Shown: positions 52,581-64,000 of the stretch, piece after piece
How positions within the stretch are numbered: the first letter of the stretch is position 1
How the letters are laid out: every line of letters begins with the position of its first letter
Origin: Holophagales bacterium UBA5066
GTDB taxonomy: Bacteria > Acidobacteriota > Thermoanaerobaculia > UBA5066
NCBI GenBank assembly: GCA_002414905.1
Contig: DIAY01000014.1
Coordinates: 741-64,740 of the forward strand
Direction: 5' to 3'
DNA length: 64,000 nt
Notes under the pieces: generated by a model
Told to the model about the DNA's origin: nothing
The model's input: only the letters and a program-made list of their open reading frames with translations
Databases searched by the model: none
Program-made: the position numbers and the translations under genes

Positions 52581-52847
52581 ATGCGAACCACCATGACGCT
52601 CGAATCCGACGTGGCCCGTGCCCTGCGCGAGGAGGTCGCCCGGAGCGGGCGCCCCCTGAAGGCCGTGGTGAACGAGGCGCTCCGGGCCGGGCTCGCCTCC
52701 GGGAAGGCGCGTCCGGCGCGACGGTACAGGCTGAAGCCCGTGTCGCTCGGTGGCGTCCTGCCCGGAGTCGACCTCGACAAGGCCCTGGCGCTCGCCGAGG
52801 TCCTCGAAGACCGCGAGATCGCCCGGAAGCTGGAGATGAGAAAGTGA
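52581..52847 (+). CDS. vapB: Type II antitoxin, VapB-type (ribbon-helix-helix-like N-terminus)
   Basis: 88 aa. MRTTMTLESDVARALREEVARSGRPLKAVVNEALRAGL is typical of VapB partners of PIN toxins. The stop overlaps the vapC start. Confidence 0.75.
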   Translation: MRTTMTLESDVARALREEVARSGRPLKAVVNEALRAGLASGKARPARRYRLKPVSLGGVLPGVDLDKALALAEVLEDREIARKLEMRK

Positions 52848-53269
52848 TCCTCGTCGACGCGAACGTCCTCGTCTACGCGGTCGACTCCGACTCCCACCAC
52901 CACCACGCGGCGCGCCGCTGGCTCGAGGCCGCACTCTCCGGGTCGGCTCCCGTCGGGTTCGCCTGGGTCGTCCTCCTGGCGTTCCTCAGGCTCACGACCC
53001 GTCCGGGAATCCTGCGCAAACCGCTGCCGCCGGAGCGCGCCATGGCCTTCGTCGACGAGTGGCTCGCCCAGCCGAACACCCGGGCCGTCGGACCCGGCGA
53101 GGGGCACTGGGCCGTTCTTCGCGCGCTGCTGAAGTCGGCCGGAACCGCCGGGAACCTCACCTCGGACGCCCACCTCGCCGCGATGGCGCTCGAGCAGGGG
53201 GCGTCGGTCTGCTCCACGGACCGGGACTTCGAACGCTTCCCCGGCGTCGAGCGTGTCGACCCGCTCTGA
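52844..53269 (+). CDS. vapC: Type II toxin VapC, PIN-domain ribonuclease
   Basis: GTG start overlaps the vapB stop (GTGA, 52844-52847). PIN acidic residues lie in ILVDANVLVYA and TSDAHLAAMALEQGASVCSTDRDFERF. Confidence 0.85.
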   Translation: MILVDANVLVYAVDSDSHHHHAARRWLEAALSGSAPVGFAWVVLLAFLRLTTRPGILRKPLPPERAMAFVDEWLAQPNTRAVGPGEGHWAVLRALLKSAGTAGNLTSDAHLAAMALEQGASVCSTDRDFERFPGVERVDPL

Positions 53270-57010: not shown

Positions 57011-58150
57011 TTGATCAACGAAACGCTCACCATGATCCCGGGACCGACGCCGGTCCACTCCCGCATCCTCGGCGCCCTCGCCCGGCCGACGACGTCGCAC
57101 GTGGCGCCGTCCTTCGTAGAAGAGTTCCAACAGGGCCTCGCCGGCTTCCGCGCGCTCGGGCAGAGTGAAACGGCGCAACCGTTCATCGTCGCAGGGGGGG
57201 GGACCCTCGCGATGGAGATGGCTCTGGTGAACGTCGTCTTCCCCGGTGAAAAGCTCCTCGTCGTCTCCCACGGCTACTTCGGCGACCGCTTCGGCGACCT
57301 CGCGGCCTCCTTCGGGATCGAAGCCGAGGTCCTGAAGTCCGAGTGGGGCCGCGCCGTTTCTCCCGGGGAGGTCGCGAGCCGCCTCGAGGCCGGCTCCTAC
57401 GCGGCCGTGACGGTCAGCCACGTCGACACCTCCACCGGCACGTGTGCGGCGGTCGAGGCGTACGTCGAGGTCCTTCGCGGGCGCCCGGAGCTCTTCATTC
57501 TCGATGGCGTCTGCGCGACGGGTGGCATCGACGAGCGGTTCGACGAGTGGGGGGTCGACGTCCTCCTCACCGGTCCCCAGAAGGCCATCGGCGCCCCTCC
57601 GGGGCTCGCCCTCTGCCTCTTCTCGGAGCGTGCCCTGGCACGCCGGAAGAGCCGCAGCCGTGTTCCGGCCTATTACGCCGACGTGATGCGCTGGCTCCCC
57701 GTCATGCTGGACCCCGGGAAGTACTTCTCGACCCCCTGCGTGAACGAGATCGTCGCGCTCGCCGAGGCGCTCCGCCTGCTCCACGCCGAGGGGCTTCCGG
57801 CCCGGTTCGCGCGCCACAGGCGAATCGCCCTCGCCGTACGGGCGGGGCTCGACGCGCTCGGCCTGAAGCTCTTCACGGCGGAGGACTGCCGGGCCGACAC
57901 GCTCTCGGTCGTCCTGCTCCCTGAGGGAATCGCCGACGCTGCTTTCCGGAAGGAAGTCGCCTCCCGGGGCGTCGTCGTCGCAGGCGGGCTCGGGCCGATC
58001 GCGGGAAAAGCCTTCCGCCTCGGCCACATGGGGAATATCAACGCCGCCGAAATCGTCGAGGCTCTCGGGGCGATCGAGGGCGGGCTGGTCGCGCTCGGCG
58101 TTCCCGTCACTCCCGGAGCAGCCGTCGCAGCCGCCGCACCGCTCCTCTGA
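57011..58150 (+). CDS. Class V aminotransferase (alanine-glyoxylate / serine-pyruvate aminotransferase-like)
   Basis: Motifs MIPGPTP, GGGTLAMEMA, SHVDTSTG and LLTGPQKAIGAPPGL (PLP Lys). TTG 57011 has SD GGAG; the alternative start is ATG 57032. Confidence 0.85.
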   Translation: MINETLTMIPGPTPVHSRILGALARPTTSHVAPSFVEEFQQGLAGFRALGQSETAQPFIVAGGGTLAMEMALVNVVFPGEKLLVVSHGYFGDRFGDLAASFGIEAEVLKSEWGRAVSPGEVASRLEAGSYAAVTVSHVDTSTGTCAAVEAYVEVLRGRPELFILDGVCATGGIDERFDEWGVDVLLTGPQKAIGAPPGLALCLFSERALARRKSRSRVPAYYADVMRWLPVMLDPGKYFSTPCVNEIVALAEALRLLHAEGLPARFARHRRIALAVRAGLDALGLKLFTAEDCRADTLSVVLLPEGIADAAFRKEVASRGVVVAGGLGPIAGKAFRLGHMGNINAAEIVEALGAIEGGLVALGVPVTPGAAVAAAAPLL

Positions 58151-59654: not shown

Positions 59655-60122
59655 CTACTTCTCCTCTGCCTTCACGGTCGCAGGAGCCACTGGGGCACCC
59701 TCGAGACCGAGGAACCTCTTCGCCGGGCCCGATTCGTCAAAGCACCCGGTCTCGATCTTTCCTTCCGCGTTGCGGCGAGCGAGGGCCCAGCTCCCGAAGT
59801 TGCCGCTCACCATGTACGCCGTCGAGCCGTTCGCCATTTTCACAGTCTTTTCGACTCCGGGCCCGCGATCGAGCAGCCGGTCGATCTCGGCGGCAAGAGC
59901 CGTGACCTCCTGCGCCGAGGCGGAACGGAGCTGGCCGGTCCTGGCGTCCCTTACGACAACCGTGAACGGCGCAGCCTGGGTCGGGGTTTGTGCCGAGACC
60001 TGCGGGCTGGCGGAGGGAGCCGCCTGCCCGCCCTTGGGTTCCGCTGCGGAGGCCGACAGTGCCAAGCCGAGGACAGACGCAGCCACGGCGGCGCCGCGGA
60101 TGTGCCTCCAGTAATTCAACAT
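59655..60122 (-). CDS. Small secreted hypothetical protein (155 aa), coupled to the metalloprotease
   Basis: SD AAGGAGA plus ATG. Signal peptide ..LGLALSASAAEP. The stop lies 3 nt before the protease ATG. Confidence 0.6.
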   Translation of the reverse strand: MLNYWRHIRGAAVAASVLGLALSASAAEPKGGQAAPSASPQVSAQTPTQAAPFTVVVRDARTGQLRSASAQEVTALAAEIDRLLDRGPGVEKTVKMANGSTAYMVSGNFGSWALARRNAEGKIETGCFDESGPAKRFLGLEGAPVAPATVKAEEK

Positions 60123-60439
60123 ACTTGTCTCCTTCGGACGAGCCGCAGTGCCTCGCCGTGACCATCGTTTCGGTTCCGGGCTGATTCTCTGATCGCCATG
60201 ATTCGGGAAATCCAGCGAATACTACCCCCTATACCGAAATCCATACCCGTCCCCTGCCGTACCTGGCAGTCTTTCGTTCTTCCTGGGATCTGCATGCCCC
60301 CGGGACCTGCTTTCGACGAACCCGACTCGATTCCCAGACCCCGTTTCAGGCACACTGGCGCCGCACCGCAGAGGGGTCCGACGAACGGGAGAGGGCCGGC
60401 CCCCCGCGCCGCGTGGAGACGCCCTCGGAGGATCAGGCC

Positions 60440-63400
60440 TTGAAGGATGACGGACCGACGACGACGCTCGAACCCGCCGGAGAATCCGTGAGCGGCCTCT
60501 CCCGGCGCGCGCTCGCAACACCCGAACCTTTCGTCCGCCTCTTCTCCCGGCGCGTCCAGCAGGAAGGGGCGCTCGACCTGACGCAGGGGGACTACAAGAA
60601 CGCAGATTTCGCGCCCCATCCGGAAGTCGTTCGCGCCGCGCAGCGGATCACCCGGAATACGGTCCACAGCTACGGGCCGGCGGTGGGCCGGATGGACGTG
60701 CGGAGCGAAGTGGCCGACTTCTTCAACCGCGACGGCCTCCTCGACTACCCCGCGTCCCAGGTGCGGTTCCTCCCGGACGAGGTCCTCTTCACGCCCGGCA
60801 CCCGCTCGGGTCTGGCGATGGTCCTCGAGGTCCTGGGCGCCGACGGCTCCGGCGTCGTCGTCCCGCGGCCCAGCTGGGAGTACGACTGGTACGTCGAGCG
60901 CGCGGGCAAGAAGCTCGTCGAGCTCCCGACCTCGGCTCCCGGGTTTCTTCCCGATCCGAAGGACCTCGACCGGCTCCTCGAGAAGGGGGGCATCTCTTCG
61001 GTCATCCTCAACAACCCGCACAACCCGACCGGTCGCGTCTACCCCCGCGCCCTCGTCGAGGAGCTCGTCCGCGTCGCGGTCGAGCACCGCGTCTACGTCC
61101 TCTACGACTCGGTCTACCAGAGACTCGATTATGTCGGCTGGTTCGTGAACCCGGCCTTCGCTGACCCCGAATGGCGCGACTGGGTCGTCTCGCTCTCGGG
61201 TCTCTCCAAGATGGACATGTTCGGAGCGTCGACCGGCACCCGCGCCTGCTGGATGATGATCTCCGACCAGATCCGTTCGAACGGCGTGCGGGCCCGGGAG
61301 ATCCTGGCGAACCTCTCGGCCTGGCTCGTCGCGACCCCCTCCACCCTCGCCCAGGACTGGGCACTCGCCGCCCTGCAGAGTCCGCTCGCCGCCCTCCGGC
61401 GCCCTTCGCCCTACATGCGCGAGCGGCGTGACTTCATGGCTCGGGCTGCCGACGAGCTGGCCTCGCTCGGTGTCGAGCGGACCGACTTCGGCGGGACCTT
61501 CTACGCCCCCCTCGCTTTTCCCGGCCTCGTTGGCGAGCCGTTCGACCGGCTGCGCGGCGGCATCCACGAAAAGGCCGTCGTGAAGGACTCCGTCGACGCC
61601 TTCGAGCTCCTCCTCTCCGGCGGCGTCGGAGGCATCCCGTTCGTCGCCTTCGCCGGCTCCGACCCGGCGCGCTACGGGACCTGGCAGCGCCTTTCCTACG
61701 GCTCGAAGGACGTGAAGGAGCTGTCGGTCTTCATCGACCGGGTCCGCGCGCGCATCACGCAGCAGGGGCGCCTCGGCTCGAGCGCACCCGCCACCTGCGC
61801 CCCGACCGCGAGATCACCCATCGACGCCGTCTGGGAGAGTGTCTGCACCGCCGAAGGCTACGACGCCCTCGACGGATTCGACCCGAAGACCTTCGCCGTC
61901 GCGCGCAAGGCGTTCCTCGAGAGCCCCCGGCACGAGACGCTCCGCCTGACCGGGACCAAGCATCCCGACTCGACGACGCACCGTGCCGGCCAGCTGGGCC
62001 GGGCCCTGGCCGCGGCCCCGGCCGGATCGCCCGACCGCGCGCGGCTCTGCCTGACGTATCTCGAGTGGAACCCCCTGGTGGATGCGCGGCCGGAATACGA
62101 GGAAACCATCGCCGACCTGCTCGGGCCTTGCAGCGAGGTGCTTCTGGACTTCGAGGGACGCCAGATCAGCCCCGAGTGGCTCGACCTGCCCGAGAAGGTG
62201 GTCCTCGCTCTTCTGCGCCACGGGATCGTCGCGGGCGAGGACCGCCACCTCCTCTTCCGCGTTCCGAACCCCTTCATCGAGCAGGACGAGGAGAAGATCG
62301 TCCGGATCCTCGGCGCCGTCGCTCGCGCGAACGTCCTCTTCCAGCTCGCCTGCGAGAAGCTCGGCATCAAACCCGTCCGCAACGCGCTCCCCGAGATCTC
62401 GGTCCCGCAGGTGAACTCGATCGCCGAGATCGGCGCCGTCGTGAAGATCGGGACGCTCTACCAGGCGGCGATCGCGGAGCTCTTCGAGGGAGCCGAAGGA
62501 CGCGCCGACGTCTTCCTGCGCGAGAGAGTCCCCGCGGCGCGCCGGATCGCGCTCATCGAGAAGGTCTCCCGGGTCCGCCTCGTCCCGCTCTGCGAGAACG
62601 TCGGCGCCCTCGCGCATCTTCCCGACTTCCTGGAGGCGTTCTATCTCGCGCTCGAGCGGGGACGCGGCCTGCCCGGTCTCCCGACGGCGGCGGTCTTCCG
62701 GACCAGCTTCGACCACGAGGAAGCCGTCGTCCGCGTCTTCGTAGCGATGTCCGACACGGCGGAGCAGAGCGGCAAGATCGCGACGGACGCCGCCTGCACG
62801 CTCGCCCTCGCCGGGCGGCAGGAGGCCGAGCGCCGCCTCGCCGCGCTCGCTCAAAAGGCCGGAGAGCCGGCACCGCGGGTCACGTTCCTGATCGGCGCCG
62901 GCCGCGCGGGCTTCCGCGGCGGATTCGACCCGGGGCACCCGGGTGTCCTCCGTCAGTTCTCCCGCGCCGACGGCGTCACGATGCAGGGGATTCGCGCCGA
63001 CTCACCCACCGAGGCCGAGCGCCTCGCCGCGGCGTTCCGCACTGAAATTGCCTCCGGGGTCCCTTTGCCCGCCGTCTCCGCCGCGGACCGCGAAGCGCTG
63101 ATGAGGCTTCTGGAGACCGGCGTGAAGGCGCATACCGAAACGCTCCTGAGGATCGCGCCGCTCCTGTCGCCCTTCGGCAGGCTCGTCCCCCAGACGCGCG
63201 TGCGGATCCGGGCGACCGGCTCGGTGAATTACGGCCGGTCGATCCCGACGTATCCCGAAGAGTGGGGCGGCGGCACGACCCTCCCCGGCAACCGTGTCCT
63301 GCGGGACGCCTGGCCCGAAGGGGTCACCCTGCCACGCGCCATCGTCTACAACCTCGCCTGCACCACGCTCGGCCTCCCCGCGGTCACGAGCGACCTCGTC

Positions 63401-64000
63401 GCCCTCGACCGCCGGGCGGCGGTCCTCCTCGAGCGGCACGTCCCGGGCTACCGGGAGATCATCTCGAGCGAGCTGCCGGCCTTCGTGAAGGAGTCGACGG
63501 CGCTCGTCTTCGGCAAGAAGCTGGCAGAGTCGACGGCGCGCCGCTGCCTCCGTGCTTCGGCCGCGCTCTGGGTCGACGCCCGTACGCGCGAGGACCTCAT
63601 CCTGCCGACATGCCTCTTCGCCATGGAGTACCTCCGCTACCTCGCGGAGGATTCGGAAAGCTGGGACGAGACGAAAGAGCACGAAAGCCGGACGACGCGC
63701 GAGGAGGAGCTGATCCGCGAGACCTCGAGCGGCGCTTTCGGGGCGCTCTGCGCCGAGCGTCCGGGCGGCCGGTGGCCGACTCTCCAGTCGCTCGTCGACA
63801 CGGAGGACGCCACCCGGCTCCTCCTCGCGCGAGAGCTGACGATCGAGGAGAAGCGGGAGTTCGTCGACCTGCGGATCGAAGGGTGGCTGCGCCTTCTTCC
63901 CGACGCCTTCTCCCGCGGGCTGCGGCGCGAATGGGCACGCCTCAGGGAGCTCGCCAAGGATGACCTGACGCTCGACGCGATCGAGCGCCTCGTCGCACTG
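60440..64000 (+). CDS. Fusion protein: class I/II (aspartate-type) aminotransferase + archaeal-type PEP-carboxylase-like domain; 3' end outside window
   Basis: My own translation. The frame is open from the stop at 60182-84 to the window edge and is absent from the track. Start is TTG 60440 (SD GGAGGA, 7-nt spacer) or GTG 60488 (SD GGAG). Aminotransferase motifs: NNPHNPTG (61010-33), SLSGLSK (Lys codon 61208-10), WQRLSYG. PEPcase_2-like motifs: TKHPDS (61955-72), DFEG (62147-58), MSDTA (62747-61), GAGRAGFRGG (62894-923). Confidence 0.8.
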   Translation, partial: MKDDGPTTTLEPAGESVSGLSRRALATPEPFVRLFSRRVQQEGALDLTQGDYKNADFAPHPEVVRAAQRITRNTVHSYGPAVGRMDVRSEVADFFNRDGLLDYPASQVRFLPDEVLFTPGTRSGLAMVLEVLGADGSGVVVPRPSWEYDWYVERAGKKLVELPTSAPGFLPDPKDLDRLLEKGGISSVILNNPHNPTGRVYPRALVEELVRVAVEHRVYVLYDSVYQRLDYVGWFVNPAFADPEWRDWVVSLSGLSKMDMFGASTGTRACWMMISDQIRSNGVRAREILANLSAWLVATPSTLAQDWALAALQSPLAALRRPSPYMRERRDFMARAADELASLGVERTDFGGTFYAPLAFPGLVGEPFDRLRGGIHEKAVVKDSVDAFELLLSGGVGGIPFVAFAGSDPARYGTWQRLSYGSKDVKELSVFIDRVRARITQQGRLGSSAPATCAPTARSPIDAVWESVCTAEGYDALDGFDPKTFAVARKAFLESPRHETLRLTGTKHPDSTTHRAGQLGRALAAAPAGSPDRARLCLTYLEWNPLVDARPEYEETIADLLGPCSEVLLDFEGRQISPEWLDLPEKVVLALLRHGIVAGEDRHLLFRVPNPFIEQDEEKIVRILGAVARANVLFQLACEKLGIKPVRNALPEISVPQVNSIAEIGAVVKIGTLYQAAIAELFEGAEGRADVFLRERVPAARRIALIEKVSRVRLVPLCENVGALAHLPDFLEAFYLALERGRGLPGLPTAAVFRTSFDHEEAVVRVFVAMSDTAEQSGKIATDAACTLALAGRQEAERRLAALAQKAGEPAPRVTFLIGAGRAGFRGGFDPGHPGVLRQFSRADGVTMQGIRADSPTEAERLAAAFRTEIASGVPLPAVSAADREALMRLLETGVKAHTETLLRIAPLLSPFGRLVPQTRVRIRATGSVNYGRSIPTYPEEWGGGTTLPGNRVLRDAWPEGVTLPRAIVYNLACTTLGLPAVTSDLVALDRRAAVLLERHVPGYREIISSELPAFVKESTALVFGKKLAESTARRCLRASAALWVDARTREDLILPTCLFAMEYLRYLAEDSESWDETKEHESRTTREEELIRETSSGAFGALCAERPGGRWPTLQSLVDTEDATRLLLARELTIEEKREFVDLRIEGWLRLLPDAFSRGLRREWARLRELAKDDLTLDAIERLVAL

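Follow-up and report, generated by a model that had tools for sequence, protein, structure and literature searches.

The window analyzed here is a 64,000-nucleotide (nt) stretch of contig DIAY01000014.1 from Holophagales bacterium UBA5066. At its right-hand end, on the plus strand, lies a gene that joins an N-terminal class I aminotransferase to a C-terminal, divergent archaeal-type phosphoenolpyruvate (PEP) carboxylase (PEPC) in one polypeptide. This fusion is one real gene, and uncultured bacteria from several phyla have kept it. Judging from its sequence, it probably encodes a bifunctional aspartate-forming enzyme, which would use PEP, HCO3- and glutamate to make aspartate. We favor this reading with moderate confidence.

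The frame that encodes the fusion runs from 60185 to 64000 on the plus strand, as 1,272 codons with zero stops in the translated window, and the TGA at 60182-60184 is the last in-frame stop before it. Within this frame, the G+C content of third codon positions (GC3) is 0.87 to 0.94 from 60485 on, compared with 0.66 in 60185-60484. This rise suggests that coding starts near 60440-60488. An earlier reading of the DNA, made from its letters only (the sequence-only reading), had described a GC3-rich frame open from that stop to the window edge, and translation bore this out. It had named the frame by position 60488, a GTG, while the stretch that it marked began at 60440. Gene callers place the start codon at the latter position, a TTG preceded at 7 nt by GGAGGA. 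The gene and the features that frame it are as follows.

60440..64000, plus strand: coding sequence of the aminotransferase/PEPC-like fusion, residues 1-1187 of 1,196 in the window (open frame; identity with database protein P0001).
60427..60432, plus strand: Shine-Dalgarno-like GGAGGA, 7 nt 5' of TTG 60440, read directly; GGAGG is kept at this place in six related loci.
60116..61567, 61814-62938 and 63002-63682, minus strand: antisense shadow open reading frames (ORFs), with first-position G+C (GC1) of 0.84 to 0.91 mirroring a plus-strand GC3 of 0.90.

P0001, which has 1,196 amino acids (aa), is 100% identical to the fusion across the entire in-window part of the ORF. The same 1,196-aa protein was called in two independent assemblies, the ENA parent contig k127_40616 (65,935 bp, from a wastewater metagenome) and Logan SRR5324735_55. 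When the ORF was extended on the parent contig, as the sequence-only reading had advised, it reached a stop at 64028-64030, and the window lacks nine codons and this stop. The PEPC-like part had been described as ~730 aa and unfinished. It is actually ~700 aa and essentially complete, because the protein ends nine codons past the window edge.

Three minus-strand ORFs cover the gene. Their GC1 mirrors the plus-strand GC3, so we regard them as antisense shadows and not genes. The plus frame has hundreds of homologues by protein database search. The shadows had been described as rich in Arg, Gly, and Pro; their status as shadows and their abundant Arg and Gly held up, but Pro was outside the six commonest residues.

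Both proposed domains scored above their Pfam gathering scores, so the predicted architecture, with Aminotran_1_2 at the N terminus and PEPcase_2 at the C terminus, was found. Aminotran_1_2 (PF00155) matched residues ~45-341 with 113.1 bits (gathering score, 19.7; expect [E] value, 2.2e-32; profile positions 4-287 of 361). PEPcase_2 (PF14010) matched residues ~546-1021 with 109.5 bits (gathering score, 25; E value, 2e-31; profile positions 23-432 of 493). The absence of a PEPcase_2 match past residue 450 had been put forward as grounds for rejecting the fusion, and this did not occur, as the match there was significant. The motifs quoted in the sequence-only reading were all found, and the Lys codon of SLSGLSK lies where it had been placed, at 61208-61210. 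The three parts of the protein are as follows.

60494..61774, plus strand: fold-type I, class I aminotransferase domain, residues ~19-445 (PF00155, Pfam core at 60572-61462; solved relatives 1bjw/1bkg).
61775..61939, plus strand: Ser/Ala/Pro-rich linker, residues ~446-500, the least conserved stretch (mean column conservation of 0.60 versus 0.81-0.95 in the flanking parts).
61940..64000, plus strand: divergent archaeal-type PEPC domain, residues ~501-1196, of which 501-1187 are in the window (PF14010; solved relative 3odm; MAFFT alignment with 12 canonical PepcA proteins).

Searches against solved structures agreed with these assignments. A profile built from 18 diverse PEPC halves had a sole match, the archaeal-type PEPC 3odm (E value, 1.8e-19). 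With phmmer, the best match of the N-terminal half was the aspartate aminotransferase (AspAT) of Thermus thermophilus, 1bjw/1bkg (E value, 5e-27). We also built a full-length AlphaFold2 model using 60 close homologues. Its mean predicted local distance difference test score (pLDDT) was 61, and its PEPC barrel was good. In a Foldseek search with this model, 3odm was the top match (E value, 1e-14), with a target-normalized template modeling (TM) score of 0.62 to 0.66 and the whole target covered. The next distinct protein was T. thermophilus AspAT, and a plant PEPC was also among the matches.

A fusion of this kind might arise as an artefact, if a missed stop codon or a frameshift in assembly or gene calling had joined two adjacent genes. 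Scanning one genome per species found 113 loci with the fusion, and 80 of the 113 were examined. A single tblastn match covered the whole protein in 65 of the 80. The remaining loci were mostly truncated at a contig end, and a few had the match in several pieces. In all 65 full-span loci, the linker (residues ~446-500) was uninterrupted, with no stop and no frameshift, so the in-frame fusion proposed from the window sequence was upheld. These loci come from many projects and sequencing technologies. In protein databases there were >120 clusters of ~1,180-1,240 aa with both Pfam domains and at least 79% identity. A search with the PEPC half among 1.84 billion representative proteins returned only 123 matches. 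They comprised one full-length fusion cluster, many fragments or frameshifted copies, three long nonfused relatives, and canonical PepcA. No standalone version of the fused PEPC clade was found among those 1.84 billion proteins. What speaks for an artefact is that frameshifted public copies do exist (P0132, P0179, P0123, and P0127). However, the identical ORF in two independent assemblies, the uninterrupted copies, the clusters with both domains, and the missing standalone form all stand against it. We consider an artefact to be extremely improbable, and it is already refuted as far as sequence data reach.

The four frameshifted copies contain long Arg/Pro/Ala-rich out-of-frame stretches and mimic separate divergent families at 50% clustering. 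We considered them as divergent fusion lineages and rejected this, as they are frameshifted.

All 80 carriers examined are metagenome-assembled genomes (MAGs). Their labels are Holophagales, Thermoanaerobaculia, Vicinamibacteria, Steroidobacteraceae, Nevskiaceae, Lysobacterales, Acidithiobacillales, Myxococcota, and Eisenbacteria, with one Actinomycetes MAG and one Chloroflexia MAG. The phyletic spread, which the sequence-only reading had left to be checked, thus takes in Acidobacteriota, Gammaproteobacteria, Myxococcota, and Eisenbacteria in addition to those two single MAGs. A plasmid search found no plasmid copy of the fusion gene.

Among fusion proteins sampled from six phylum-level groups, identity is at least 64% across ~1,190 residues. 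Recent horizontal transfer was rejected as the source of this high identity for the most distant lineages, because the G+C content of the gene follows the host and synonymous sites are saturated. Gene G+C and flank G+C correlate with r = 0.88. At four-fold degenerate sites, the window matched loci from Vicinamibacterales, Chloroflexia, Actinomycetes, and Myxococcota only at the level expected from base composition. The retention of at least 64% identity under these circumstances shows strong purifying selection on both halves. Two Eisenbacteria loci, the Myxococcota loci, and two Thermoanaerobaculia groups are each no closer to their own kind than to other phyla. Because identities are independent of taxonomy in this way, older transfers are likely.

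The PEPC half aligned end to end with 12 canonical PepcA proteins, from TxHPD to the C-terminal RGxxG (MAFFT). Canonical PepcA proteins are 500 to 545 aa long, and the fused domain is ~700 aa. The sequence-only reading had ascribed the extra length to inserts or a further domain. The alignment supports the inserts and not a further domain, as the extra 160 to 200 residues are insertions after TKHPD, near residues 680-705 and 740-760, at ~805, and in a large one at ~1040-1170. Of the 64 positions at which at least 11 of the 12 canonical proteins agree, 46 are retained, and none of the conserved His, Arg, Asp, or Glu residues is lost. The retained residues include H508, D510, E572, R607, E719, D772, R826, Q849, R920, R922, R966, and R1191. 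The loss of catalytic His and Arg positions, which had been named as a reason to reject carboxylase activity, therefore did not occur. The motifs TxHPD, DxEG, RxP, PLxE, SDxA, GxGxxxFRG, TxQ, RxR, PRAI, and the C-terminal RGxxG are all present and invariant in the family. Five of the motif regions are located as follows.

61955..61972, plus strand: TKHPDS (canonical TQHPD, bacterial TAHPT), with the presumed catalytic His508; T, H, P, and D are invariant, and the change of Q to K is clade specific.
62579..62611, plus strand: LVPLCENVGAL (canonical IPLxE), with Glu719, a presumed metal ligand (MAFFT alignment, residue comparison).
62741..62773, plus strand: VAMSDTAEQSG (canonical RSDxA, Escherichia coli GYSDSAKDAG), with Asp772, a presumed metal ligand (alignment).
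62888..62923, plus strand: LIGAGRAGFRGG, a glycine-rich loop with Arg826 (canonical GxGxxPFRG, E. coli GRGGSIGRGG) (alignment).
63329..63379, plus strand: LPRAIVYNLACTTLGLP, a motif with Arg966 (canonical LPRAI, E. coli LRAIPW) (alignment, family profile).

The catalytic roles of these motifs are presumed from those in the E. coli and maize enzymes, and Glu719 is taken to be a metal ligand by its presumed equivalence to E. coli Glu506. A residue mapping onto E. coli Ppc with hhalign was rejected as not significant (probability, 0.6) and served only as a lead. It lined up TAHPT, GYSDSAKDAG, GRGGSIGRGG, VTEQG, and LRAIPW with their counterparts, but not PLFET.

Conservation is highest in the aminotransferase half, where the column mean among 66 family members is 0.84 to 0.95. 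N195, D223, Y226, S254, K257, R268, R122, and R417 (in an RLSY motif) are invariant in 60 homologues. K257, N195, D223, and R268 aligned to residues of T. thermophilus AspAT, and R417 was placed by motif only. The half thus has the residues expected of a pyridoxal 5'-phosphate (PLP) aminotransferase, namely, the Schiff-base Lys, the Asn, Asp, Tyr, and Arg that hold the cofactor, and the Arg for the alpha-carboxylate. Two sites are of particular relevance.

61208..61210, plus strand: codon of Lys257, the PLP Schiff-base Lys in SLSGLSK, invariant in 60 homologues and aligned to AAK of T. thermophilus AspAT.
60797..60811, plus strand: GTRSG, with the invariant Arg122 at the position of the Lys in GGKQ of T. 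thermophilus AspAT (alignment).

We take the Lys of GGKQ (Lys109 in pig numbering), a feature of subgroup Ib AspATs, to be the residue that binds the distal carboxylate of aspartate or glutamate. At this site the fusion has Arg122 in place of Lys, so the charge is kept while the residue differs.

One half might instead be noncatalytic, for example, if the aminotransferase fold were an amino acid-sensing regulator of the carboxylase in the style of MocR. Aminotransferase folds do serve as sensors elsewhere, a MocR-like model was among the weak NCBIfam matches, and PEPC is regulated by aspartate in many organisms. However, the full PLP-binding and catalytic set is invariant, and it lies in the most conserved part of the protein. 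This argues for a working catalyst, because a ligand sensor would not obviously need such a set. We therefore regard a noncatalytic half as very unlikely.

T. thermophilus AspAT, a member of subgroup Ib, is ~28% identical to the fused half and has the NPxNPTG, YD..Y, and S..K PLP motifs in common with it. The fused half differs from this enzyme in having Arg for the Lys of GGKQ, in having a second enzyme attached, and in scoring below the NCBIfam AspAT cutoffs. It also appears to have an insertion of ~18 residues before the C-terminal RLSY, judging by a comparison with the T. thermophilus sequence made without a tool alignment.

Several observations weigh against an aspartate-forming enzyme. 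The PEPC half scored 102.7 bits against the NCBIfam equivalog TIGR02751, for which the cutoff is 146.05, and it is only ~30% identical to canonical PepcA (E values, 1e-10 to 1e-3). Clade-specific substitutions are found at otherwise invariant positions, Q507K (beside the catalytic His), K574R, and Y898H, and the half carries ~160 to 200 residues of insertions. For the aminotransferase half, every NCBIfam equivalog cutoff is far above the score obtained (e.g., 74.6 versus 550 for NF041091 and 57.9 versus 617 for NF004769). The best NCBIfam matches include alanine aminotransferase and GntC besides AspAT. Finally, the aminotransferase half of the AlphaFold model was poor (pLDDT, 25 to 50), and the interdomain contacts were unreliable.

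The points concerning the PEPC half could mean that its chemistry has changed, so that it would act on another phosphoenol or enolate substrate, use another electrophile, or not carboxylate at all, and the product would not be aspartate. In addition to the subthreshold score and the low identity, Q507K, K574R, and Y898H are common to a small clade of long uncharacterized relatives, and the insertions are large. The substitutions were found in P0161 and P0169; P0209 was left out of that alignment. However, all the conserved His, Arg, Asp, and Glu residues are kept, and the motifs occur in order to the C terminus. Furthermore, the substitutions are conservative or fall outside the motifs that we take to be essential in E. 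coli. A change in chemistry is therefore quite unlikely in our view.

The points concerning the aminotransferase half bear on its specificity. A working PEPC might be joined to an aminotransferase for alanine, aromatic amino acids, prephenate, or another 2-oxo acid, or to one with a donor other than glutamate. Such a protein would couple anaplerosis to another nitrogen transaction or merely coregulate the two activities. The NCBIfam results are consistent with this, as are the solved structures related to this half, which also include prephenate, aromatic, and alanine aminotransferases. However, T. thermophilus AspAT is its nearest solved relative by sequence and the first aminotransferase in the fold search. 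In addition, the invariant Arg122 occupies the presumed distal-carboxylate position. Enzyme fusions usually couple consecutive steps, and oxaloacetate is the sole product of the partner domain. Another specificity thus seems unlikely, and we would place it ahead of a change in PEPC chemistry. Because the scores are far under the equivalog cutoffs and the best models include alanine aminotransferase and GntC, aspartate/glutamate specificity is only suggested.

The bifunctional aspartate-forming enzyme that we favor would work in two steps. In the C-terminal ~700 residues, PEP and bicarbonate would react irreversibly, with the aid of a divalent metal, to give oxaloacetate and phosphate. The N-terminal ~445 residues, which form a class I, PLP-dependent aminotransferase of the same type as Thermus AspAT (subgroup Ib), would then transaminate this oxaloacetate with glutamate. 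The net reaction would be PEP + HCO3- + glutamate to aspartate + 2-oxoglutarate + Pi. The covalent link would fix the two activities at a 1:1 ratio and would hold oxaloacetate, which is labile and scarce, beside the domain that uses it up. Being exergonic, the carboxylation would drive the transamination forward. We infer both enzymatic activities, the substrate pair, any true channeling, and the oligomeric state.

Archaeal-type PEPC is reported to be inhibited by aspartate in competition with PEP (PMC8100219). By analogy, product feedback by aspartate may be intrinsic to the fusion.

A bolder proposal is that the protein is a covalent aspartate synthase that constitutes a fifth structural class of PEPC. 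In such an enzyme, oxaloacetate would be passed directly between the active sites, bypassing the cellular pool, and aspartate would feed back on the PEPC. The insertions and substitutions would build an interface or tunnel. We hold this proposal to be rather doubtful.

Each half of the fusion has well-known counterparts. The production of aspartate from PEP and bicarbonate by separate PEPC and AspAT enzymes is established biochemistry. The same two consecutive reactions occur in anaplerosis and in aspartate-forming C4 photosynthesis. That system consists of two proteins, with a bacterial or plant PEPC (PF00311) that looks unrelated, whereas here there is one polypeptide with an archaeal-type PEPC. 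The fused half has the same fold, motifs, and motif order as archaeal-type PEPC (PepcA/atPEPC; PF14010, TIGR02751), the solved example being 3odm from Clostridium perfringens. However, canonical archaeal-type PEPC is a free-standing homotetramer, whereas the fused half sits behind an aminotransferase and has the insertions and the three substitutions. Subunits of the archaeal-type enzyme are 55 to 60 kDa and form a homotetramer (PMC8100219). The fused domain departs from a free-standing subunit of this size, as it is ~700 aa within a 1,196-aa fusion.

Outside the family, the fused PEPC domain is most closely related to long, nonfused PEPcase_2 proteins, P0161 (905 aa), P0169 (930 aa), and P0209 (1,037 aa). 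P0161 and P0169 have TKHPD, EGR, and some insertions in common with it. However, all three are without an aminotransferase domain, have other insertions, are 29 to 32% identical to the fused domain, and are uncharacterized. P0209 is named PEPC and comes from a Micrarchaeota archaeon.

We found no description of an aminotransferase-PEPC fusion in the literature searched, and in a 2020 review of the PEP-pyruvate-oxaloacetate node, which describes four PEPC types, a fused type is absent. This agrees with the sequence-only reading, which knew of no characterized fusion. Public databases already contain fusion proteins, with automatically assigned names such as "phosphoenolpyruvate carboxylase." Automatic annotation thus shows the architecture, which is, as far as could be checked, apparently unstudied.

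We also examined the genomic context. The upstream neighbors lie on the opposite strand; one encodes a protein of 155 aa that matched no family, and the other encodes a PA-domain protein. Beyond them are genes for a class V aminotransferase, an EamA transporter, and an MFS/PTR2 transporter. The best NCBIfam match of the class V aminotransferase (57011-58150) is L-aspartate-glyoxylate aminotransferase BhcA, with 237 bits against a cutoff of 650, and this gene is near the fusion in eight loci only. Downstream, past the window edge, a gene for a 367-aa DUF5924 protein (L001 13572-14675, starting at approximately window position 64011) overlaps the fusion stop by 20 nt, an arrangement suggestive of translational coupling. 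DUF5924 is directly downstream in 12 of the 80 loci, all of them close relatives of the Holophagales/Thermoanaerobaculia type, and no mention of DUF5924 was found in the literature searched. After it comes a convergent gene for a group II PLP-dependent decarboxylase (L001 14708-16147, minus strand), which is near the fusion in six loci only. In NCBIfam it came closest to L-2,4-diaminobutyrate decarboxylase and the aspartate 1-decarboxylase PanP, with scores far under both cutoffs. The substrate of either activity would be an aspartate-family compound.

Conserved operon partners were rejected. By tblastn of the window neighbors and all-against-all ORF clustering, no neighbor family occurred in more than ~12 of 81 loci. 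With no widely shared neighbor, the fusion gene appears to be a self-contained unit, and its context gives no clue to function. Elsewhere in the window, at 52593-53269, gene calls placed an 84-aa ORF overlapping a PIN-domain gene, a toxin-antitoxin-like pair.

The region upstream of the fusion gene contains one conserved element, which may be a promoter or operator.

60343..60374, plus strand: conserved block GTTTCAGGCACACTGGCGCCGCACCGCAGAGG, ~32 nt, 66-97 nt before the start, kept in the window and in six loci of the Holophagales/Thermoanaerobaculia type.

A leader RNA was rejected, as the fold that RNAalifold predicted for seven upstream regions, at -5.3 kcal/mol, had no covariation support. 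No Rfam family was found in 59900-60700 beyond a chance-level match to Acido-1. This weak match to the Acido-1 small RNA (59965-60032; 19 bits versus a gathering score of 50; E value, 0.37) lies inside the upstream minus-strand ORF and is probably due to chance. The intergenic region upstream also has a terminator-like hairpin, CTGCCGTACCTGGCAG (60254-60279), which is followed by a T-rich tail. One such hairpin was found versus 0.1 expected, and it is not conserved in the aligned related loci. Four other loci (L006, L008, L018, and L076) have a near-perfect palindrome with arms of ~29 nt (CGCAGAGTGTAGAAGGTAGACCTGACCCC ... GGGGTCAGGTCTACCTTCTACACTCTGCG), located ~150 to 250 nt upstream of the fusion gene, between it and the upstream gene. 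It could be an element like a repetitive extragenic palindrome (REP) or a terminator.

Both halves of the fusion come from well-known families, and fusions of consecutive enzymes are common, which limits its importance. Even so, PEPC is a central anaplerotic, CO2-fixing enzyme, and a conserved natural fusion with a consumer of oxaloacetate would be a new architecture at this metabolic node. It would be a candidate case of the channeling of an unstable intermediate. As a compact means of making aspartate from PEP and bicarbonate with one gene, it might also be of use in metabolic engineering. The fusion would bear on the synthesis of C4 amino acids in Holophagales, Thermoanaerobaculia, Vicinamibacteria, Steroidobacteraceae, and related uncultured bacteria of soil and wastewater. 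If the proposal of a fifth PEPC class were true, uncultured high-GC bacteria would have a natural single-gene module, under very strong selection, that fixes CO2 into an amino acid.

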